A DNA stretch of 64,000 nt from Candidatus Saccharimonadia bacterium (GTDB taxonomy: Bacteria > Patescibacteriota > SICC01), in NCBI GenBank assembly GCA_025449535.1, contig JANWJF010000001.1:677136-741135 (forward strand), in the 5' to 3' direction. How positions within the stretch are numbered: position 1 is the stretch's first letter; each line of letters begins with the position of its first letter. Made by a program: the position numbers and the translations under genes. Below are positions 3,292-41,798 of the stretch, piece after piece. A model generated the notes under the pieces. That model did no database searches. It saw only the letters and a program-made list of their open reading frames with translations, and was not told the origin of the DNA.

Positions 3292-3843
3292 CTAATCCGG
3301 CAGACTCGTTTTTAAATCGTTGAGGAAATCTGCGAGAGATACTATCCGGCAGTTGTACTGCCCAGTGTCTACTGCTTTGAAATCTTTGAGATTAGTGGTT
3401 ACAAGTACGTCACAGCCGAGACGTTCTGCAAGCGAGAAAATGGAAGCATCTGCTTGGCGTTGGTTACGATTCAACCACTGGCGGCTATCCAGTGGTGGTT
3501 TTCCTTGACGCTCGCGCTCCTCGTTGTGTGTGGAGAATGCTGCTTGAGTATCAGCCACTTCACGGCGAATCTCTGAATAGCCGTTTCCTCCTGCGAGTAT
3601 ATCTGGGCCGCCAATAGCTGAGACACCAATTGTGAAGTAACGAGTGTCGTCTTCTGTAAAGCGCTGCTGTAGCAACGTCCAATTACTTTGCCCCGATTCG
3701 GTAAGACGACTCTCGTCAAACTCATCGAGCACTGCACTGACGAGTATGTAATCGTATCCCTCAGGGCTACTGAGGATCGCTTTAGTCATGTGTTGATCCT
3801 GGCAAGCGTCGATTAGGGCGTTAGTGTCAAAAGCGATTAGCAT
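3292..3843 (-). CDS. PIN-domain protein (VapC-like nuclease toxin candidate), ~183 aa
   Basis: N-terminal IAFDTNALID acidic motif and C-terminal GCDVLVTTNLKDF motif typical of PIN domains; ATG at 3843, alternative TTG at 3903; low-GC islet. Confidence 0.6.
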   Translation of the reverse strand: MLIAFDTNALIDACQDQHMTKAILSSPEGYDYILVSAVLDEFDESRLTESGQSNWTLLQQRFTEDDTRYFTIGVSAIGGPDILAGGNGYSEIRREVADTQAAFSTHNEERERQGKPPLDSRQWLNRNQRQADASIFSLAERLGCDVLVTTNLKDFKAVDTGQYNCRIVSLADFLNDLKTSLPD

Positions 3844-3874
3844 CTCGTTTCTAGTATGCTCCAACACAGAGGCG

Positions 3875-4036
3875 CTAACGTTTCTGCTCTCGAACAGCCG
3901 CAAGAACCCTGACTAAATCAGTGAGGTGCCGCTCTCGCTCAACTTTCCGCAAGCTGTATTCGAGCAGCGCCTTCACGTAGCCATCCCAGTCGGGCGGATT
4001 ACGCCGTACGCCCTCGATAGAGAGATCAGAAAGCTT
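3875..4036 (-). CDS. small ORF immediately upstream of the PIN gene (possible antitoxin partner, ~53 aa from a GTG)
   Basis: Position and size fit a type II toxin-antitoxin layout; the N-terminal extension of the 126-aa stop-to-stop ORF looks non-coding (Arg-rich); start uncertain. Confidence 0.2.
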   Translation of the reverse strand, partial: KLSDLSIEGVRRNPPDWDGYVKALLEYSLRKVERERHLTDLVRVLAAVREQKR

Positions 4037-4274
4037 CACGCGCTGCCTCCGGAGCTTCTGTGGCCTCCTTGTTACCACCCAGGTGTATCCGGCAAAGACC
4101 CGAGCGCCGGAATGAAACAGCCGATGCGTGAGCGTGGCACTACAGAAAAGCACCGGTCGTGATCGCCGGCCGGTAGTAAGGGGATAGCGATAGTCAGCCT
4201 GCTGTTTGGAAGCAGTCCCGAACTCGACAGTGCGTGGCTTGCGCGGTCTTCCCACCTACCAACCATACGCTGAC

Positions 4275-4287
4275 GGGGGGGGGGGGG
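4275..4287. repeat. G13 homopolymer tract
   Basis: 13 consecutive G residues ~50 bp upstream of the ATG at 4336, in the divergent intergenic region. Confidence 0.9.
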
Positions 4288-4335
4288 CAATCAAGGTGCC
4301 TTGTAGCGTGTAACTGTCAGTCCTATGCTCGATCT

Positions 4336-5094
4336 ATGAGTAAAGACGATCCGAAGCAAGCCCTAACTACTGTTACAGCAACAGAGCTCAGTGAGCGCAA
4401 GCCAATCACACAGATAATTCACAGGCAGTTAGAAAATCTCCTCCAATACGTTCCAGGTTTACTCGAATCTACAAAGGGCGAGAACGCGACGCGTCTGAGT
4501 CGACTCCTTCAGGCTTTTAATTCTGGTCGATTCATCCAGCAACTTGATAAGGAGCTCGCAGACTTAAGGAAGAGCAGTTCTATTAAGGATGATTATTTCG
4601 TTCAAGAGCAAGCGCTTGAAGGTCTTCAGATTTTATTCGAGTTTATTGACGAGGACTCTCCTGACCTGGTGCGGTTCGAAGCTATGAAACAGGTGTTTCT
4701 AACAATGTGTCAGGAGAAAGACAATTTATCTGACCGAAACGATCCTATTCCTACGCAGTTACTCAGAATCTGCCGAGGACTATCTTCGGGCGAACTGATC
4801 GTCTTGACGACTGCCTATAAATTACGAACCGAAGTAAAAGAAGAACGTAAGCAGGGGAAGCAACCGATTGGGTACTGGCATGAGGAAATTGCGCAGGGCA
4901 GCGGTCTCGTATTTCCAGACCTCGTAGATTTTCACGAAAGAAAACTAATGGACAAGAACCTCATTACTCCGCGGTACCAAAATGACGACCTTATTTATTA
5001 CGGAGCGAAGAATCGTTTAACTGACCTAGGTGAAACACTTTGCGAGTTCATTGGCGAGCTTGATCCCCGCCACCCAAATCCTTTAGCTAAGTGA
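4336..5094 (+). CDS. hypothetical protein, 252 aa, carried on the low-GC islet
   Basis: Long ORF at ~40-45% GC with clear coding periodicity; no recognisable motif. Confidence 0.5.
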   Translation: MSKDDPKQALTTVTATELSERKPITQIIHRQLENLLQYVPGLLESTKGENATRLSRLLQAFNSGRFIQQLDKELADLRKSSSIKDDYFVQEQALEGLQILFEFIDEDSPDLVRFEAMKQVFLTMCQEKDNLSDRNDPIPTQLLRICRGLSSGELIVLTTAYKLRTEVKEERKQGKQPIGYWHEEIAQGSGLVFPDLVDFHERKLMDKNLITPRYQNDDLIYYGAKNRLTDLGETLCEFIGELDPRHPNPLAK

Positions 5095-5218
5095 TCAGTT
5101 TTTGATTTGACGACTGTTCAAGGGTTCGACAAAGGCCCTTTAACTAGTATTAATGGGACAAGAATCGAAACGCCGTAACTGCGGTATTTAATGAATTGTT
5201 CGAGAAACGTTTTGTCTG

Positions 5219-5291
5219 TGGAGCTAAGCGGGCTCGAACCGCTGACCTCCTGCATGCCATGCAGGCGCTCTACCAACTGAGCTATAGCCCC
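5219..5291 (-). tRNA. tRNA-Ala (anticodon GGC)
   Basis: Cloverleaf read from the reverse complement: GGGGCTA acceptor stem, anticodon loop AUGGCAU, T-arm GGTTCGAGCC; CCA not encoded. Confidence 0.9.
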
Positions 5292-11633: not shown

Positions 11634-12339
11634 GCCGACCGACCTCAAGGTGCTCCAGAAGTCGCTGGGGCTGCGGTTCAAGGATGACGACCTGCTGCGC
11701 TCAGCGCTGGTCCACCGGAGCTACCTCAACGAGAACCGGGACTTCTCGCTGCCGCACAATGAGCGACTGGAGTTCCTGGGTGACGCCGTGCTCGAGCTCG
11801 TGGTAACGGATCATCTCTACAACACCTACAACCAGCCCGAGGGCGAGCTCACCAGCCTGCGTTCCGCACTGGTGCGCACCGAGCACCTGGCGAAGGTCGC
11901 CGGCGGTCTCGGACTCGGTCAGGCCCTGCTGATGTCCAAAGGGGAGGAGAAGAGCGGGGGACGTGAGCGTCCGGCGCTCCTGGCGAATACCTGCGAAGCG
12001 GTGATCGGCGCGATCTACCTCGACCAGGGGTATGCCACGGTGAACCGGTTCATCCACCAGCGGATCATCAGCGCGCTGGAAGGAATCATCGCCGAGGAAG
12101 CCCACCGCGACCCGAAGAGCCTGCTCCAGGAGGCGGCCCAGGAGCGGTTCAACCGGACGCCGCGCTACAAAGTACTGAAGGCGACCGGGCCCGACCATGC
12201 CAAGCACTTTACGGTGGCGGTCCAGGTCGGGGACAATGTGGTCGGCGAGGGCGAGGGCAATTCCAAGCAGACGGCCGAACGGGCCGCGGCCCAGGCGGCC
12301 CTCGACGGATCGTTCAAGCAACCGGACAAGAAGGGGTAA
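11626..12339 (+). CDS. rnc: ribonuclease III
   Basis: ERLEFLGDAVLE signature plus a C-terminal dsRNA-binding domain; GTG start overlapping the upstream stop. Confidence 0.9.
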   Translation: MTEPTDLKVLQKSLGLRFKDDDLLRSALVHRSYLNENRDFSLPHNERLEFLGDAVLELVVTDHLYNTYNQPEGELTSLRSALVRTEHLAKVAGGLGLGQALLMSKGEEKSGGRERPALLANTCEAVIGAIYLDQGYATVNRFIHQRIISALEGIIAEEAHRDPKSLLQEAAQERFNRTPRYKVLKATGPDHAKHFTVAVQVGDNVVGEGEGNSKQTAERAAAQAALDGSFKQPDKKG

Positions 12340-12355
12340 CCGGCTTTTCGTACCC

Positions 12356-14830
12356 ATGTTCCTGCAATCCTTAGAACTCACCGGTTTCAAATCGTTCGCC
12401 AAGCGGACCAAATTGGAATTCCAGCCCGGCATCACCGGCATCGTTGGCCCGAACGGCTCCGGCAAGTCGAACATCGCCGACGCGATCCGCTGGGTGCTCG
12501 GCGCGCAGTCGAAGAAGGCCGTGCGCGGCAAGGTCTCGACGGACGTGATCTTCTCTGGGACGTCCAAGCGCCCCGCGATGAGCCTGTCCGAGGTCTCGCT
12601 GACGTTCGACAATTCGCGCAAGCTGCTGCCGTACGACTACGACGAGGTCGTCGTCACGCGGCGCCTGTACCGAAGCGGCGACTCGGAGTACCTCGTCAAC
12701 GGCGGCAAGGTACGGCTGACGGACCTGCTGCACGCGTTCGCGGTGGCCGGAGTCGGTGCCGAGAACTACACGGTGATCTCCCAGGGGCTGGTGGACAAGG
12801 TCCTCAGCCAGACGCCGGAGCAGCGGCGCGGACTGTTCGAGGAAGCGGCCGGCGTCCGACAGTTCTACCTGAAGCGCGACGAAGCCAAGCGGAAGCTGGC
12901 GGAGACCGACCGCAACCTCGGCCGGGTGCATGACATCCTCAAGGAGCTCGGCCCGCGGCTGAAGTCGCTGGCCCGGCAGGCGGACGCGTTGGCCAAACGG
13001 GCGGAGGTCGAGCAGCGGTTGAAGGACGCGTTGCTCGGGTTCTACGGCCGCCGGTATCGGGATCTCTCCAAGGACGCGAAGGAGCGTCGCGCCAAGCGCG
13101 AGGAACTCGAGGGTGAGCTGGCCAAGCTCGGCACCGAGCTCGACGCGCTTGGCAAGGAAGTCGACGCGCTGCGATCGCGCCAGCAGGGCCTGACCCTGAA
13201 CAAGCTGTTCGCGGAGCGGAACGGCATCGCGCAAGAACGGGACGAACTGCGCGAACGGACGAACAAAGCGATCACCGCACGGGAGGTCGCCAAGGCGACG
13301 ATCGAGCGACTGCGGTCCGAGCGGAAGAACTTCGAGGCCCGGTTGGAACTGCTGCCGGAAGCCGGCGGCGGCAAGACGGTGGACACCAAGGATATCGATC
13401 GGAAGATAGCGGACGTCGAGAAGCGCATCGAGAGCCTGGAACGCCCCGTGGAAGGCGGATTGCCGTTGCTGCTGGATGAGATCGACGGGCTGGTGCACCA
13501 GTTGGAGGAAGCGGTACGCCGGGGCGATGCGACGGACGCGATCGAGCTGAAGATCGACGGCCTCCGAAACTTGCTCGGCCGGGCAAGGCGGATCGTGGAC
13601 GGCGAGCCCGACGACGCGATCGCGGAGCGCACAAAGCTGCAGGAAGAGCTGGCTTCGCTAAAGGTCCAGCGGGCGTCACGCGCCGAGGCTACCAAGCTGC
13701 GGAACGAACAGGCGAAACAGACCGGGAAGGAACGGGAGACGCTCGTCGCGCGGCTGGCGGAGATAAAGACGGAACTCGCCACGGCGGAACGCACTGTCGA
13801 GGAGTCGGCGACCGCGCTCGGCGGATCCGAGGAGCAGCTCAAGGAGCTCGAGTCCAAGATCGTGGCACTGGACAAGCAGGTCGCGACGGAACAACAGCGG
13901 AGCTTCGGCGAGTCCGACGAACTCAAGGGCAAGGAAGAGGCGCTCCGCGCCAAGCATCGGACGCAGGACGAGTATCGGCGCGAATTGGAAGCGCAGAACC
14001 TGGAGCTGGCCAAGCTGGAGACCAAGCTCGACGACCTCGTCCATGAGGCCAAGGGCAAGTTGGCGACGCTCAAGGGAGATACCGCGTTCCCGATGGCCGA
14101 CGATGTCCAGTTGCCGGCCGAGGAGGTAGACGAGGAGAAGATCGCCAAGCTGGAGCGCAGGCTCATGGAGATGGGCGGGATCGACCCGGCCGTCACCGCG
14201 GAGCACCAGGAGGTCGAGGAGCGACATCAGTTCCTGACGACCCAAGGCGAGGACCTGTCCAAGGCGAAGAAGGACCTCGAGCAGGTGATTCGCGAGCTCG
14301 AGCAGAAGAGCCGGATGCTCTTCACCGACGCGTTCGAGAAGATCGGGGCCGTCTTCAGCGAATACTTCGACAAGCTGTTCGGCGGGGGCAGGGCCTCGTT
14401 GGAACTGGTCGAGCCGAAGCTGGAGGATGTCGAGGAGTCCGAGGGGCCGCGCAAGCTGGACGCCGGCATCGAGATCAAGGCCGTGCCGCCCGGCAAGCGA
14501 CTGAAGTCGCTGGCCCAGTTGTCCGGCGGCGAGCGGGCGCTGACCTCCGTGGCACTGCTGTTCGCGATCCTCAAGGTGAACCCGTCGCCGTTCGTGATGC
14601 TCGACGAGGTCGACGCCGCGCTCGACGAAGCGAATACCGGCCGGTTCGCCAGCGTGCTCTCCGAGATGGGCGAGCTGACGCAATTCCTGGTCGTCACGCA
14701 TAACAGAGACACGATGAAGGCCGCGGCGATGCTCTACGGCGTCAGCATGGACTCCACGGGCGTCTCGACGATGCTGTCGCTGAAGCTGCCGGAAGCGGAG
14801 AAGGTCTCAAGTCCTAAAGTCCGTGCGTAG
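12356..14830 (+). CDS. smc: SMC-family chromosome partition ATPase, compact and hingeless (824 aa)
   Basis: Walker A GPNGSGKSN, ABC signature LSGGERAL, Walker B FVMLDEVDAALD; long coiled coil in between, but no recognisable hinge motif at mid-protein; the conserved rnc-smc adjacency supports the call. Confidence 0.75.
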   Translation: MFLQSLELTGFKSFAKRTKLEFQPGITGIVGPNGSGKSNIADAIRWVLGAQSKKAVRGKVSTDVIFSGTSKRPAMSLSEVSLTFDNSRKLLPYDYDEVVVTRRLYRSGDSEYLVNGGKVRLTDLLHAFAVAGVGAENYTVISQGLVDKVLSQTPEQRRGLFEEAAGVRQFYLKRDEAKRKLAETDRNLGRVHDILKELGPRLKSLARQADALAKRAEVEQRLKDALLGFYGRRYRDLSKDAKERRAKREELEGELAKLGTELDALGKEVDALRSRQQGLTLNKLFAERNGIAQERDELRERTNKAITAREVAKATIERLRSERKNFEARLELLPEAGGGKTVDTKDIDRKIADVEKRIESLERPVEGGLPLLLDEIDGLVHQLEEAVRRGDATDAIELKIDGLRNLLGRARRIVDGEPDDAIAERTKLQEELASLKVQRASRAEATKLRNEQAKQTGKERETLVARLAEIKTELATAERTVEESATALGGSEEQLKELESKIVALDKQVATEQQRSFGESDELKGKEEALRAKHRTQDEYRRELEAQNLELAKLETKLDDLVHEAKGKLATLKGDTAFPMADDVQLPAEEVDEEKIAKLERRLMEMGGIDPAVTAEHQEVEERHQFLTTQGEDLSKAKKDLEQVIRELEQKSRMLFTDAFEKIGAVFSEYFDKLFGGGRASLELVEPKLEDVEESEGPRKLDAGIEIKAVPPGKRLKSLAQLSGGERALTSVALLFAILKVNPSPFVMLDEVDAALDEANTGRFASVLSEMGELTQFLVVTHNRDTMKAAAMLYGVSMDSTGVSTMLSLKLPEAEKVSSPKVRA

Positions 14831-14851: not shown

Positions 14852-15574
14852 ATGGACCTGCTTCTTGTATTTATTGGGGGCTTCTTGGCGGCCTTATTTG
14901 GATCTATGGCTGGGGGCGGTGCTGCTTTCTTTGGTCTTTATGCGCTGCTTTTCTTAGGACTACCGCTTAATGCTGCAATTGCCACGAACAGTTTTGGAAG
15001 TCTCGGGTTTTTCATGACTTCAATTAGGAACTTCTTTAATCAAGGGCTTGTTAACAAGAGCATCATTATTACGCTATTGGCTCTTCAAGGAATAGGTGTC
15101 GCAATCGGAACATTTCTACTTATCCAATTAAGCGGCCTGGCGATTAAAGTCATCGTTACACTAATTATCGCTACGGCATTTTTGTTATTAGCATTTCAAC
15201 GAGGCCAGAACCATTCAGGTAAGGCTAATCCATTATGGAAACCCGTGTACTTTTTTTATGCGCTGTATTCAGGTTTAATCGGGACCGGATCAGGAGCAAT
15301 CAGAACATTTTGCCTCATTAGACTAAGGAAACTTCCTGCCTTACAAGCCGTCGCGAACGGTTTTGTGGCTACATTTCCCTTTGCTTTTTTATCAACTGGC
15401 GCGTTGTTATATGCAGGACTAGTAGACATTAGGCTAGGAGTCATGCTTCTGGCGGGTAATTTGTTAGGAGCCCATATTGGATCCAAAATTGCTATCAGAA
15501 AAGGTAATGATTTTGTGCGCCAGATGGTTTTGGTTTTTATGGTCATAACATTGATAGTGGTATGGACGTTGTAG
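14852..15574 (+). CDS. TSUP/TauE-SafE-family membrane transporter (DUF81), on a low-GC single-gene insert
   Basis: Polytopic membrane protein with a GGGAAFFG motif; GC ~42% against ~65% in the flanks. Confidence 0.7.
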   Translation: MDLLLVFIGGFLAALFGSMAGGGAAFFGLYALLFLGLPLNAAIATNSFGSLGFFMTSIRNFFNQGLVNKSIIITLLALQGIGVAIGTFLLIQLSGLAIKVIVTLIIATAFLLLAFQRGQNHSGKANPLWKPVYFFYALYSGLIGTGSGAIRTFCLIRLRKLPALQAVANGFVATFPFAFLSTGALLYAGLVDIRLGVMLLAGNLLGAHIGSKIAIRKGNDFVRQMVLVFMVITLIVVWTL

Positions 15575-15634: not shown

Positions 15635-16141
15635 TTGTTGGTTATCAGATTATCCCGAACCGGACGAACGAAGCGCCCCCATTACCGCGTCGTCGTCGCG
15701 GAGAAAAGCGCGGCCGTCAAAGGTCGCTACTTGGAGGTGCTCGGCCACTTCGATCCGCGGACCAAGGAACTGAAGGTCGACGAGGAACGGACCAAGGTCC
15801 GGCTCAAGGACGGTGCCCAGCCGAGCGAGACCGCGGAAATGCTGCTCGAGAAGGCCGGCGTCCTGAAGCGGGACAAGCTCAAGGACGAACACCGTCGCCC
15901 GACGCGCAAGAAGAAGAAGGACATCAAGGCGGAAGCCGAGGGCGGGGACGCGCCGGCCAAGCCCGCGGATGATGTCGCCGCTTCCGATGACGCGGCCGGT
16001 GATTCCAAGGACGACAAGCCGGTTGCAAAGGACGAAGCCAAGAAGGATGAAAAACCCGCCGCGCAGCCGGAAGAGAAGGCCGGGGCGGACAAACCCGAAG
16101 CCAAGAAGGAAGATAAGGATAACGAAAAAGGAGGCTCCTGA
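15635..16141 (+). CDS. rpsP: 30S ribosomal protein S16 with a Lys/Ala-rich C-terminal extension
   Basis: LVIRLSRTGRTKRPHYRVVVA N-terminus; TTG start after an aggaga ribosome-binding site. Confidence 0.9.
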   Translation: MLVIRLSRTGRTKRPHYRVVVAEKSAAVKGRYLEVLGHFDPRTKELKVDEERTKVRLKDGAQPSETAEMLLEKAGVLKRDKLKDEHRRPTRKKKKDIKAEAEGGDAPAKPADDVAASDDAAGDSKDDKPVAKDEAKKDEKPAAQPEEKAGADKPEAKKEDKDNEKGGS

Positions 16142-16814: not shown

Positions 16815-16910
16815 GGAGGAGTGGCAGAGCGGTTGAATGCAGCGGCCTCTAAAGCCGTCAGTTCCCCGCCGGGGAACTTCCCACCAAGGGTTCGAATCCC
16901 TTCTCCTCCG
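16815..16910 (+). tRNA. type-II (long variable arm) tRNA with anticodon CUA; Ser-like identity (G73 discriminator, GGAGGAG acceptor stem); predicted amber-suppressor tRNA-Ser(CUA), or a pseudogene
   Basis: Manual fold: acceptor GGAGGAG/CTCCTCC (an 8th C-G pair is possible), U8, 3-bp D stem with an AGCGG…GG loop, anticodon stem GCGGC/GCCGU, loop CUCUAAA (34-36 = CUA, A37 A38), ~27-nt variable arm with a GTTCCCC/GGGGAAC stem, T-arm AAGGG-TTCGAAT-CCCTT; one base away from a Ser-CGA anticodon loop. Confidence 0.55.
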
Positions 16911-37918: not shown

Positions 37919-38206
37919 GTGGAAATCGACAGACAAGCGGTGGAAAAGGTGGCACGACTGGCGCGATTGGCTCTGTCGGACGATGACGTCGCAGCGAATC
38001 AACGGCAACTCTCTAAGATCTTGGAGTACATCGACCAGTTGAACGAGGTCGATACCAAGGGCGTCCCACCTACCGCCCAGGTGACCGGGACGGTGAACGC
38101 CTTGGCCGACGACGAAGTCAGGAACGAACGTCGGGACGAACTGCCGATCGATGCGCCGGCCACTGACGGCGGCAGCATCAAGGTAAAGGGAGTCTTCGAT
38201 GGCTGA
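37919..38206 (+). CDS. gatC: Asp/Glu-tRNA amidotransferase subunit C
   Basis: [11 protein letters not shown]…[13 protein letters not shown] motif; GTG start. Confidence 0.85.
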
Positions 38207-39557
38207 CGCTGCGAGTCCGTACCTAGGGACCGTCCCGAAGCCGGCGGATATCGGTGTCGCCCGGAAGGCGCTCGACCAGGGCAGCCTGCAGAGCGTGCCG
38301 GTCGCGATGAAGGACATCATCGTCACGGCGGACGGACGGAAGAGTACGGCCGCTTCCAAGATGCTTGCGCCATACGGAAGCCCTTATGACGCGACGGTAG
38401 TGCGGAAGATGCTCAAGGCCGGCGCGGAAGTCGTAGGCAAGACCAATCTTGACGAGTTCGCGATGGGCGCGTCGACCGAGAACTCAGCCTTGGGCAAGAC
38501 CGTAAACCCGTGGGATCCGGAACGAGTACCCGGCGGCAGTTCGGGAGGGTCGGCGGCCGCGGTGGCCAGCCGCTCGGTTCCGGTTGCGCTCGGGACCGAC
38601 ACCGGCGGCTCGGTCCGCCAACCCGCCGCGTTCTGCGGAGTAGTCGGCCTGAAACCGACCTATGGTCGCGTCTCGCGCTACGGCCTGATCGCCATGGCCA
38701 GCTCGCTGGACCAGGCGGGGACGTTCACGACGACCGTCGCCGACGCCGCCACGGTACTCGGTACGATCGCCGGACCGGACCCGTTGGACGCGACCAGCGT
38801 GGACCGGGAAGTACCGGATTACCGCAAGGCGCTGACCGGGGACGTGAAAGGACTCACCGTTGGCATCCCCAAGGAGTACTTTGAGGTCGAGGGCGGCGTG
38901 CAGCTGGAGATCGGCGAGGCGATCGAACAGGCCAAGGGGGATCTCCGGAAGGCCGGCGCGAAGGTCGTTGACGTCAGCCTGCCGCATACGAAGTACGCCG
39001 TCTCGGTCTATTACCTGGTGATGCCCGCCGAGGCGTCATCCAACCTGGCCCGGTACGACGGCATCCGGTATGGCCATTCAGTGGAACGGGACGCGGACTG
39101 GCAGGGATCGCTTGAGGACGTCTACTTCCAGAGCCGGGCCCAGGGCTTCGGACCGGAGGTGCAGCGGCGGATCATGCTGGGTACGTACGCGTTATCCGCT
39201 GGGTACTACGACGCGTACTACAAGAAGGCGATGCAGGTTCGGACGCTGGTGACGCGGGACTTCGAGCAGGCGTTTGAGAAGGTGGACCTGTTACTTACAC
39301 CGACTACCCCGACGACTGCGTTCAAGTTCGAAGAGAAAGCCGATGATCCGCTGGCGATGTACCTGGCGGATATCTTCACGGTACCCGCGAGCCTGGCCGG
39401 CCTGCCGGCGGTCTCGGTCCCGGCTGGATTCGACAAGCAGAACCTGCCGATCGGGCTGCAGTTGATCGGCAAACACTGGGGAGAGGCAACGGTCCTGCGG
39501 GCCGCTCACGCGTACGAACAGCGTCACGACTGGCACACAAAGGAGCCGCCACGATGA
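38199..39557 (+). CDS. gatA: Asp/Glu-tRNA amidotransferase subunit A
   Basis: Amidase signature [12 protein letters not shown]; 452 aa. Confidence 0.95.
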
Positions 39558-39976
39558 TGGAGCTGCTGGTTCTCGTCGTAATCCTGACCGTCGTGGTCGG
39601 CGTCGCGCTGGCAGTACGTCAGCATCAGGCGCTGCCGCGGACGTTGTCCGCCGACGACAAGGGGTTCGCCCACGTGCGCTGGCACGAGATCCAACAGCAA
39701 CTGCAGAAGGGCGGGCCGGCACACCTCCGGCAGGCGGTGATCTCCGCGGACAACCTGATCGACCATTGCCTGAAGGCCCTCGGCGTTCCCGGCGAGACGA
39801 TGGGCGAACGGTTGAAGGCTTCCGGGGGACGCTTCTCCGACCTGGACGGCCTCTGGTCAGCGCACAAGACCCGCAACCAGATCGTCCACGAGGCGGACAA
39901 GGAACTACTGAGCTTCGAGGCGAAGTCGGCGCTCGACAAGTTCGAGCGGGCGCTCAAGGACCTGGGGGCGCTGTGA
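39554..39976 (+). CDS. membrane-anchored protein with a C-terminal Rx4H motif (RNQIVHE; HEPN-like), inserted between gatA and gatB
   Basis: N-terminal transmembrane helix; ATGA/GTGA overlaps on both sides; motif-level resemblance only. Confidence 0.45.
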
Positions 39977-41469
39977 GCGGCGCATCGAGGTACGAAGCCG
40001 TCATCGGTCTGGAGATCCACGTCCAGCTGCGGACGAAGTCCAAGATGTTTTGCCGGTGCGACAACCAGGCGGACGGCGCCAAGCCGAACGAGCTGACCTG
40101 TCCGGTCTGTCTCGGCCTGCCGGGCGCCTTGCCGGTCCCGAACCGGACGGCGGTGGAATGGGCGATCAAGGCGGCGTTAGCGCTCGGTTGCGCGATCCCG
40201 GACGAGTCGAAGTTCGACCGCAAGCAGTACTTCTATCCGGATCTCCCGAAGGGCTACCAGATTTCGCAGTACGACCAACCGTTCGGTGGGCCGGGGACGT
40301 TCGAATTCGACATGGTCGAGGACGGGAAGACCGTCACCAAGCAGATCGGCATCACCCGGCTGCACTTAGAAGAGGACGCCGGCAAGCTGACGCACCCCAA
40401 GGGCGCGGACTACTCGCTAGTCGACCTGAACCGGGCCGGCACGCCGCTGGCGGAGATCGTCACCGAGCCGGACCTGCGCAGTCCGGCCGAAGCGAAGCGG
40501 TTCCTGCAAGAGCTGCGGCGGCTGATGCGGTACCTCGGCATATCGGACGCGGACATGGAAAAGGGGCACCTTCGTGCGGACGCCAACATCTCGCTCCGGA
40601 AGCCTGGCGAGAAGAAGCTCGGCACCAAGACCGAACTGAAGAACCTCAACAGCTTCCGGTTCGTGGAGCGGGGCTTGGCGGCCGAGATCGAACGACAGAC
40701 GGAACTGCTCGATGCGGGCAAGTCAGTGGACCAGGAGACGCGCGGGTTCGACGAGGACGGCAACCGGACGGTCAGCCAACGTGGCAAGGAAGAAGCGCAC
40801 GATTACCGCTACTTCCCCGAGCCGGATATCCCGCCGCTGGAGCCGAAGGCGCTCGGAATTAAAAAGCTTGTCAAAGGGCTGCCAGAACTGCCCGTGGAAG
40901 TTAAGAGGCGGTTTATTACGGAGTATGGACTTCAACCAGATCAAGCTGAGCTTCTCACTGATTCTCTAGATGATGTGGAGTATTTTGAAGCAAGTTTGAA
41001 AGCTGCCATGTCTGGAAAAAATAAAATTAATGATCGAACAAAAGCGGCACAGAATATTTCCAAAATAGCTTATGGGATTGGCAGGCAAATCATGACAAAG
41101 AAAATGCTTAACAGTTTCATGGAATTGGATTGGCCAGGTTCTTATCCTTCTGTGACAGGAGTAGGTGCGCGATATCTGGCTTCTGGTGAATACACAATGT
41201 CGACCTTGAACCCTGTAATGGAAAGAATTTGGGAAGAAGATCTAGATCCCGAAAAAACTTTGGAGAAAGAAAAACCTCAAAAACTTGGACAATCCGATCT
41301 AGACAAGATCATCGACCAAGCCATCGCTGACAACCCCAAGCCAGCTGCCGACTTCAAGGCCGGTAACGAGAACGCCAAGCAAGTGATCGTCGGCGCGGTG
41401 ATGAAGGCGACCAAGGGAGCGGCCAACGCTCGTGAGGTTGCACAACTCGTCGAGAAAAAGTTGTCATAA
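39973..41469 (+). CDS. gatB: Asp/Glu-tRNA amidotransferase subunit B (3' ~430 nt is a low-GC mosaic segment)
   Basis: N-terminal YEAVIGLEIHVQL…CRCDN motifs and a C-terminal YqeY-like tail; GTG start at 39973; GC drops to ~40% across 40860-41290. Confidence 0.9.
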   Translation: MSGASRYEAVIGLEIHVQLRTKSKMFCRCDNQADGAKPNELTCPVCLGLPGALPVPNRTAVEWAIKAALALGCAIPDESKFDRKQYFYPDLPKGYQISQYDQPFGGPGTFEFDMVEDGKTVTKQIGITRLHLEEDAGKLTHPKGADYSLVDLNRAGTPLAEIVTEPDLRSPAEAKRFLQELRRLMRYLGISDADMEKGHLRADANISLRKPGEKKLGTKTELKNLNSFRFVERGLAAEIERQTELLDAGKSVDQETRGFDEDGNRTVSQRGKEEAHDYRYFPEPDIPPLEPKALGIKKLVKGLPELPVEVKRRFITEYGLQPDQAELLTDSLDDVEYFEASLKAAMSGKNKINDRTKAAQNISKIAYGIGRQIMTKKMLNSFMELDWPGSYPSVTGVGARYLASGEYTMSTLNPVMERIWEEDLDPEKTLEKEKPQKLGQSDLDKIIDQAIADNPKPAADFKAGNENAKQVIVGAVMKATKGAANAREVAQLVEKKLS

Positions 41470-41568: not shown

Positions 41569-41748
41569 ATGTTGATCAACCTTCTGGGTGACGCGGGCGA
41601 CGAAGCTGCTGCGAACCCGACCCCTGGCGCCGACGAGAACGACGGCGCCGAAGGCGGCGAGGGCGCAGAAGCCCCCGCCACGGAGGAGACTCCGGCCGAA
41701 GGCGGCGACTCTGACGAGTCCGGCGACGGCGAGACTCCGGCCGCGTAG
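41569..41748 (+). CDS. small highly acidic, disordered protein (59 aa)
   Basis: Strong ribosome-binding site tagggaggg; followed by an intrinsic terminator; below the track cutoff. Confidence 0.45.
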   Translation: MLINLLGDAGDEAAANPTPGADENDGAEGGEGAEAPATEETPAEGGDSDESGDGETPAA

Positions 41749-41766: not shown

Positions 41767-41798
41767 AAAAGCCCCGTTCGCGGGGCTTTTCCTTTTTG
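41767..41798 (+). terminator. intrinsic terminator (AAAAGCCCCG ttcg CGGGGCTTTT CCTTTTT)
   Basis: Perfect stem, UUCG loop and T-tract. Confidence 0.75.

Follow-up and report, generated by a model that had tools for sequence, protein, structure and literature searches.

Can a gene of the core translation machinery exchange one of its structural domains for DNA of another origin and still encode the same enzyme subunit? This question is raised by gatB, the gene for the B subunit of the aminoacyl-tRNA amidotransferase GatCAB, in a 64,000-nt stretch of a Candidatus Saccharimonadia genome (GenBank assembly GCA_025449535.1, contig JANWJF010000001.1, positions 677,136 to 741,135; hereafter, the window). 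The gene has a GTG start, a TAA stop and a frame that is open throughout, and its middle differs sharply in composition from both flanks. Very probably, a tract of about 440 nt of the 63%-GC host gatB was replaced, via recombination, by the corresponding part of a divergent low-GC gatB, with the product remaining a GatCAB B subunit.

The replaced segment and its borders

The GC content of 150-nt windows along gatB falls from 0.60-0.69 to 0.37-0.45 at about 40850-41350 and then rises again. Overall, the window has a GC content of 62.8%, and of its 128 non-overlapping 500-nt bins, only 3 have values below 0.47, two of them outside gatB (4501-5000 and 15001-15500). The GC content at third codon positions (GC3), calculated per 30 codons, drops from 0.8-0.93 to 0.23-0.43 in the tract. 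Because this drop is seen in synonymous positions, it represents a change in codon usage and not just an effect of amino acid composition. A maximum-likelihood fit of two changepoints to GC3 delimited codons 295-443 (Table 1), with a GC3 of 0.33 inside and 0.85 outside; twice the log-likelihood gain was 130.2, compared with a maximum of 14.7 in a null set of 30 codon shuffles of a native relative. The initial annotation of this DNA, made from the letters alone, had placed a low-GC segment at 40860-41290, with an abrupt fall to ~40% GC and a recovery, in a preserved frame of normal length. The fitted borders agree with it within about 10 nt, sliding-window GC and codon usage confirm the fall and the recovery, and the 498-aa product lies in the range of the members of its subclade (478-500 aa). 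In a rough window-wide scan for internal low-GC3 tracts, with a median-GC3 filter that left out gatB itself, the only flags among the other genes of the window were 5' non-coding extensions or spurious frames.

Comparison with the closest relatives gives the same borders. The identity of the window GatB to three related proteins (P0002, P0003 and P0005) is 91-92% over residues 1-295, 18-27% over residues 296-443 and 78-85% over residues 444-498. At the DNA level, the flanks are 87-96% identical to the closest relatives; in windows along the gatB flanks, identity to the loci L001-L003 is for the most part 0.80-0.96 and dips to 0.67-0.82 near codons 241-265, and codon-aligned identity in the middle is 0.2-0.6, declining toward chance along the tract. 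By BLASTN, the 7.5 kb of synteny is colinear but for one gap, with similarity ending at 40868-40895 and resuming at 41307-41312. Together, the estimates place the left junction within 40855-40895 and the right junction within 41299-41312. Nei-Gojobori estimates of synonymous and non-synonymous divergence (dS and dN) follow the same pattern, with a dS of 0.5-0.85 and a dN/dS of 0.07-0.20 in the flanks, and a saturated dS and a dN of about 1.0 in the middle. Thus, gatB contains a discordant internal block that has definable breakpoints and a composition unlike that of the host genome. The initial annotation had suggested that the helical segment was replaced through intragenic recombination or a domain swap; the sharp breakpoints in the orthologue alignment bear this out, and BLASTN did not return the contrary outcome that it had named, a tract aligning normally to the DNA of relatives. 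As judged from sequence, these comparisons support an in-frame replacement of the helical domain by low-GC DNA.

A native form of the middle is present among the relatives. Four of them (P0002, P0003, P0004 and P0006) have a common middle, here called type A, with 56-83% identity among themselves; where its GC3 was profiled, in the loci L001 and L003, it has the native value of 0.75-0.85. Its dN/dS of 0.12-0.34 indicates that the native allele is functional and constrained. A neighbour-joining tree built from the flanks places type A as ancestral to the subclade of the window gatB. An AT-rich-looking type A middle is present in P0008. Among the matches listed, a scan of genome contigs with the cradle domain recovered one close relative, L004, the genome of the window itself not being among them, and the closest GTDB match was one labelled Candidatus Saccharibacteria.

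The sequence comes from metagenome-assembled genomes (MAGs), and the flanks of the tract encode nearly invariant motifs, e.g. YFPEPDIPPL and DNPKPAADFKAGN, such that an assembler might have bridged the gene via the gatB middle of another organism. An assembly chimera is nevertheless unlikely, to the point of being barely credible. The window GatB is 100% identical to NCBI HEY8108515.1 (Patescibacteria MAG, contig of 809,772 bp), and the same protein sequence occurs on 8 contigs, 6 from JGI (two of them of 0.2-1 Mb) and 2 from NCBI. The one contig compared at the DNA level (JGI Ga0373474_0000001, 812,893 bp; locus L087) has 0 mismatches to the window over 7.5 kb, the other contigs being compared at the protein level, and the right junction is covered by a Logan unitig fragment that encodes residues 416-498. 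Furthermore, frame and register are kept across both junctions, with a product that is predicted to fold; long k-mers would not be shared between a low-GC organism and flanks of 85% GC3; and unrelated studies of other species have yielded analogous mosaics, with L002 present in two NCBI MAGs and L084/L085 in ENA and Logan.

The product retains the three-domain architecture of GatB, consisting of the cradle, the helical domain and the YqeY-like tail, as found with Pfam, AlphaFold2 and Foldseek. It matches the equivalog model TIGR00133 with 478.7 bits (cutoff 314.8) and NF004012 with 555.6 bits (cutoff 338), in both cases in a single stretch covering residues 6-497 of 498. The AlphaFold2 model, built from an alignment of 119 sequences, has a predicted local distance difference test score (pLDDT) of 91.2 overall; the segment is modelled as all-helical with a pLDDT of 90-98, except for about 75 at residues 381-390. 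With Foldseek, 494-499 columns were aligned to the full-length GatB structures 3ip4_B and 3al0_B, with a template modelling (TM) score of 0.74-0.75. The insert opens with the canonical LPELP..RRF..EYGL..YFE motif, is colinear with the Thermotoga maritima GatB 3al0_B and, over its residues 1-136, is 30% identical to an ordinary GatB in the locus L089. By these motifs and alignments, the incoming sequence is a GatB-type helical domain, and the predicted fold of the chimera is that of a normal GatB with three domains. The chimera most likely retains its function as the GatCAB B subunit.

For the Staphylococcus aureus GatB, residues 1-294 are assigned to the cradle, 295-407 to the helical domain, 408-411 to the inter-domain loop and 412-475 to the tail (PMC2811023). 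The left junction of the tract, at codons 295-308, comes right after the YFPEPDIPPL motif that closes the cradle, and the right junction, at codons 443-446, falls at 'QSDLDK', which aligns with the S. aureus 'ISD' at the start of the tail. The tail itself carries the conserved motifs FKAGN..AK and VGAVMKATKG, aligning with the S. aureus tail 412-475. Because the breakpoints match the domain borders of GatB, the swapped unit corresponds to the whole helical domain with its linker, and the cradle is native.

Recurrence among relatives

Independent replacements of the helical domain are found in at least four lineages of the high-GC Saccharibacteria clade, namely that of the window protein (P0001) and those of its relatives P0005, P0007 and P0015, with lowered GC3 in 3 of the 4. 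The locus L002, which encodes P0005 and is represented by two NCBI MAGs, shows 94.8% and 94.4% DNA identity to L001, which encodes P0002, over 7.5 kb, interrupted only where gatB has, in the same position, a gap of about 430 nt. The sequence in this gap has a GC3 of 0.25-0.55 and shares 15% identity with type A and 18% with the window segment; its breakpoints lie within about 10 codons of those of the window on the left and about 3 on the right. The AlphaFold2 model of P0005 has a helical middle, with a pLDDT of 87 overall and 63-92 in the middle. P0015 (L084/L085) is 90-92% identical to its sisters in the N-terminal part, 28-35% in the middle and 75-87% in the tail, the sisters sharing 68-69% with one another in the middle; over its codons 318-428, GC3 is 0.46. 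In P0007, the middle is unrelated but of native GC. A GC3 dip, to 0.47 vs 0.75, is also seen in P0011. At a threshold of 35% identity, nine types of middle were distinguished among 35 members of the clade.

These pairs also bear on whether foreign DNA is needed at all. The helical domain might have lost constraint and drifted in situ to low GC under AT-biased mutation, consistent with its being the least constrained part of GatB here (dN/dS of 0.12-0.34, against 0.10-0.12 in the cradle), with the insert being colinear with type A and similar in length (148 vs 145 aa), and with the milder GC3 dips in the same domain of several relatives. However, between L001 and L002 the dS of the flanks is only 0.2-0.3, whereas the middles are saturated and unalignable. 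As neutral drift cannot exceed the dS of the flanking sequence, this comparison excludes in-situ drift for L002, and drift under relaxed selection was rejected as a candidate on the same grounds. In addition, the borders are sharp to within a few codons, type A is under purifying selection with native GC3 in L001 and L003, and an open frame of 148 codons in 41%-GC DNA, with a confidently predicted fold, points to continuous coding constraint. Overall, rapid divergence in place is a highly improbable origin of the tract.

The extent of this variability was assessed by comparing the helical domains of protein pairs with 80-90% identical cradle domains. For such pairs, the identity of the helical domains has a median of 58% and a minimum of 41% in other phyla, and of 61% and 40% in the low-GC group of the candidate phyla radiation (CPR), compared with a median of 24% and a minimum of 10% in the high-GC Saccharibacteria clade. 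The identity of the tails is the same in the clade and in the controls from other phyla (68% vs 67%). In these alignments, the decoupling of the cradle from the helical domain is specific to the high-GC Saccharibacteria clade and is not seen in the other phyla or in the low-GC CPR group.

Repeated replacement at the same borders, where the breakpoints of independent events agree to about 10 codons at the left border and about 3 at the right one, and the nine sequence types among the 35 clade proteins might also result from programmed diversification or cassette exchange, with gene conversion from silent copies, the action of a diversity-generating retroelement, or co-conversion in the wake of a homing intein or endonuclease, since lost, as candidates. 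Against this explanation, tblastn and blastn searches of the window, which covers 64 kb of the 0.81-Mb genome, detected no second gatB and no copy or fragment of the segment, and there are no flanking repeats. The differences extend over about 440 nt and show no preference for adenines, in contrast to the variable regions of diversity-generating retroelements, and the colinearity of the protein with GatB structures leaves no intein or endonuclease remnant. We consider a programmed system of this kind highly improbable, if slightly less so than drift in place.

Recurrent recombination is the preferred reading, and the recurrence may represent neutral tolerance or adaptive turnover. It is doubtful, but conceivable, that the helical domain of GatB in this clade is a hot-swappable module, which at least four of the 35 sampled lineages have exchanged at two fixed domain borders, usually for orphan low-GC sequence, with a turnover that is adaptive rather than neutral. 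If so, the turnover could track changes in the shape of tRNA(Gln) or tRNA(Asn), or could represent escape from a phage-, host- or competitor-encoded factor that binds the exposed arm.

Source of the insert, mechanism and genomic setting

Under the recombination scenario, foreign gatB DNA would be taken up, Patescibacteria being thought to be naturally competent, and recombination would replace about 440 nt of the chromosomal gatB in register and in frame. Selection would then keep only those products with junctions at the two domain borders, such that the native cradle and the native tail are retained and the helical arm, which links the cradle to the tail that binds the tRNA elbow, is swapped. 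In this scenario, the helical domain is mainly a structural spacer and a tRNA-contacting arm, and would therefore accept any homologous counterpart that resembles it in size. Homologous-recombination genes and competence machinery have been reported in Patescibacteria (PMC12455944).

Several observations weigh against this scenario. A 63%-GC and a ~40%-GC gatB would offer very little flanking DNA identity for homologous recombination, and no repeats or microhomology were seen at the junctions. The search for a donor was likewise negative. An exhaustive phmmer search of 1.84 billion cluster representatives, a library with one protein per 50% cluster, returned 7 hits with E <= 1e-3, the best scoring 45 bits over ~54 residues; this match is confined to the first ~54 residues of the segment, and the hits overall are weak ones to N-terminal motifs. 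Scans of JGI, viral contig, phage and plasmid sequences yielded only remote ordinary gatB or short matches, with identities of at most 42% (27-30% over most of the segment and up to 42% over short stretches); the metagenome scan missed the known JGI source contig, so that this collection is incomplete for finding donors. Furthermore, the donor may be a distant relative rather than a member of a truly foreign phylum.

Because the middles diverge far faster than the whole proteins, a donor could hide behind a cluster representative. Word-index searches with the 148-aa segment and with the middle of P0005 returned nothing, not even the parent proteins, and are not counted as evidence of absence. 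Two candidates were set aside: P0123, a repetitive 765-aa sequence that is probably a spurious hit of the phmmer search, and the viral match L088 (36 residues, 42% identity), which was judged to be due to chance. With no donor matched, the term foreign refers here to composition and phylogenetic incongruence and not to a matched source. The gap pattern that the segment shares with type A, together with the similar length, points to a distant low-GC relative as the donor, rather than to another phylum.

The mosaic gene is the last in a gatC-gatA-orf140-gatB operon (Table 1), and the same order is found in those loci of relatives whose flanks reach that far. A gene for a protein of 140-143 aa is called between gatA and gatB in every relative locus examined. 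The protein has no Pfam or NCBIfam match; its invariant motifs, in an alignment of 8 loci, include WHE, GGP, MGERL, AHK.RN, VHE, SFE and DLG. As the DNA is colinear with relatives through this gene, it lies outside the swap. The clade carrying the gene is the same clade that has the hypervariable GatB helical domain. More distant members of the clade have extra genes in the gat operon, between gatA and the gene for the 140-aa protein or gatB, namely a NUDIX gene in L084 (2481-3008) and a peptidyl-prolyl isomerase gene in L090, L091 and L092 (about 392-1079); the operon is thus a site of gene insertion as well as of domain replacement. Directly 3' of gatB, an acidic low-complexity 59-aa open reading frame (ORF), rich in Asp, Glu, Gly and Ala (41569-41748, + strand), is followed by a terminator-like hairpin near 41770-41795, and a gene of 54-76 aa is called at the same position in loci of relatives with enough flank.

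Table 1. Genes of the gat operon and segments of the mosaic gatB, in window coordinates
Feature	Coordinates	Strand	Description
gatC	37919..38206	+	95 aa; first gene of the gatC-gatA-orf140-gatB operon; PF02686 in the identical JGI locus L087; translation open
gatA	38199..39557	+	452 aa; native composition, GC3 0.81; Pfam Amidase, E = 6.8e-143
Gene for conserved 140-aa protein	39554..39976	+	N-terminal hydrophobic helix; translationally coupled to gatA and gatB (ATGA and GTGA overlaps)
gatB, mosaic gene	39973..41469	+	498 aa plus stop; Pfam GatB_N 10-290, GatB_Yqey 401-497
Native cradle (catalytic) domain	39973..40854	+	Codons 1-294; GC3 about 0.85; dN/dS 0.08-0.10
Replaced module	40855..41301	+	Low-GC helical domain and inter-domain loop, codons 295-443; GC 0.41, GC3 0.33
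Native tail (YqeY-C-like)	41302..41469	+	Codons 444-498 plus stop; GC3 back to 0.7-0.9

Other low-GC DNA is present in the window. One gene has a low GC over its whole length (14852-15574, + strand; GC 0.43, GC3 0.40) and is probably a separate horizontal acquisition; its product is a membrane protein of the TauE/SafE family (Pfam E = 7.9e-28), and the genes on its two sides, smc (12197-14830) and rpsP (15635-16141), are of native GC. A low-GC island at 3292-5094 (GC 0.44-0.55), with ORFs of 203 and 286 aa that have a GC3 of 0.47-0.50 and no Pfam match, adjoins a tRNA-Ala(GGC) gene (5218-5291, - strand), a layout typical of an integrated element. Additionally, downstream of rpsP and KH-domain genes, we identified a 96-nt type-II tRNA with a long variable arm and the anticodon CUA, which reads UAG (16815-16910, + strand; 58 bits to the Rfam tRNA model). 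ARAGORN labels it 'tRNA-Pyl', and by eye it resembles tRNA-Ser. The stops of the long high-GC3 ORFs in the window comprise 17 TAG, 12 TGA and 8 TAA; with TAG as the commonest stop, there is no global reassignment of UAG, and this tRNA may be a chromosomal amber suppressor.

Comparison with known mosaic and modular genes

Many bacteria depend entirely on GatCAB for making Gln-tRNA(Gln) and/or Asn-tRNA(Asn), and gatB is therefore normally treated as a vertically inherited core marker. The case described here suggests that even this core gene can acquire a foreign structural domain in a reduced-genome episymbiont, and calls for caution in using full-length gatB in CPR phylogenies or in schemes akin to multilocus sequence typing (MLST). 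Its recurrence in one clade hints at a lineage-specific pressure or recombination habit. Furthermore, the clade offers a natural domain-swap series, in which an identical cradle and tail are combined with unrelated helical domains of 124-148 aa, that could show if the helical domain serves purely as a spacer or ruler or has a part in tRNA discrimination as well.

As an event, the gatB case is of a known kind, a mosaic gene formed by partial horizontal transfer. Unusual are the precision with which a domain is exchanged, the orphan insert and the recurrence of the same swap in an essential translation gene. Partial intragenic transfer is reported for the mosaic tet(O/W/32) ribosomal-protection genes and for the aph(3')-IIa mosaics (PMC5181394, PMC4437187 and PMC3241670). 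As in those mosaics, an internal block has been swapped for its homologue from a divergent allele without loss of the frame, function is presumed, and detection relies on incongruent identity and composition along the gene. The tet and aph mosaics, however, are accessory or resistance genes with identifiable parental alleles, whereas gatB is a core translation gene; its exchanged block coincides exactly with one structural domain and is filled by an orphan insert, and the exchange recurs in sister lineages.

The glutaminyl-tRNA synthetase (GlnRS) of Deinococcus, which is reported to carry a C-terminal YqeY extension (PMC1865053 and PMC2811023), illustrates a related principle, namely that the C-terminal tRNA-binding region of GatB is a transferable module that can work on a different catalytic body. 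The Deinococcus enzyme is an ancient fusion of a whole YqeY-like region to another enzyme; in the gatB case, only the helical sub-domain was exchanged, within gatB, and recently enough for the foreign codon usage to be retained.

Recombination involving the same gene, which is reportedly among those treated in PMC7719230, has a parallel in Wolbachia, in which gatB is a recombining housekeeping locus and serves as an MLST marker. The two cases share the gene, intragenic recombination and a host-associated bacterium; to our knowledge, recombination in Wolbachia takes place between closely related alleles, and we know of no change in composition or domain-level replacement there. The repeated use of the same borders, in turn, resembles the HsdS subunits of Type I restriction systems, in which target-recognition domains located between conserved regions are swapped repeatedly at the same borders. 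In HsdS, known repeats or recombinases bring about the exchange, and the DNA specificity of the enzyme changes with it. The likeness of gatB to HsdS lies in the repeated exchange at the same borders, the dedicated machinery and the change of specificity being features known from HsdS.

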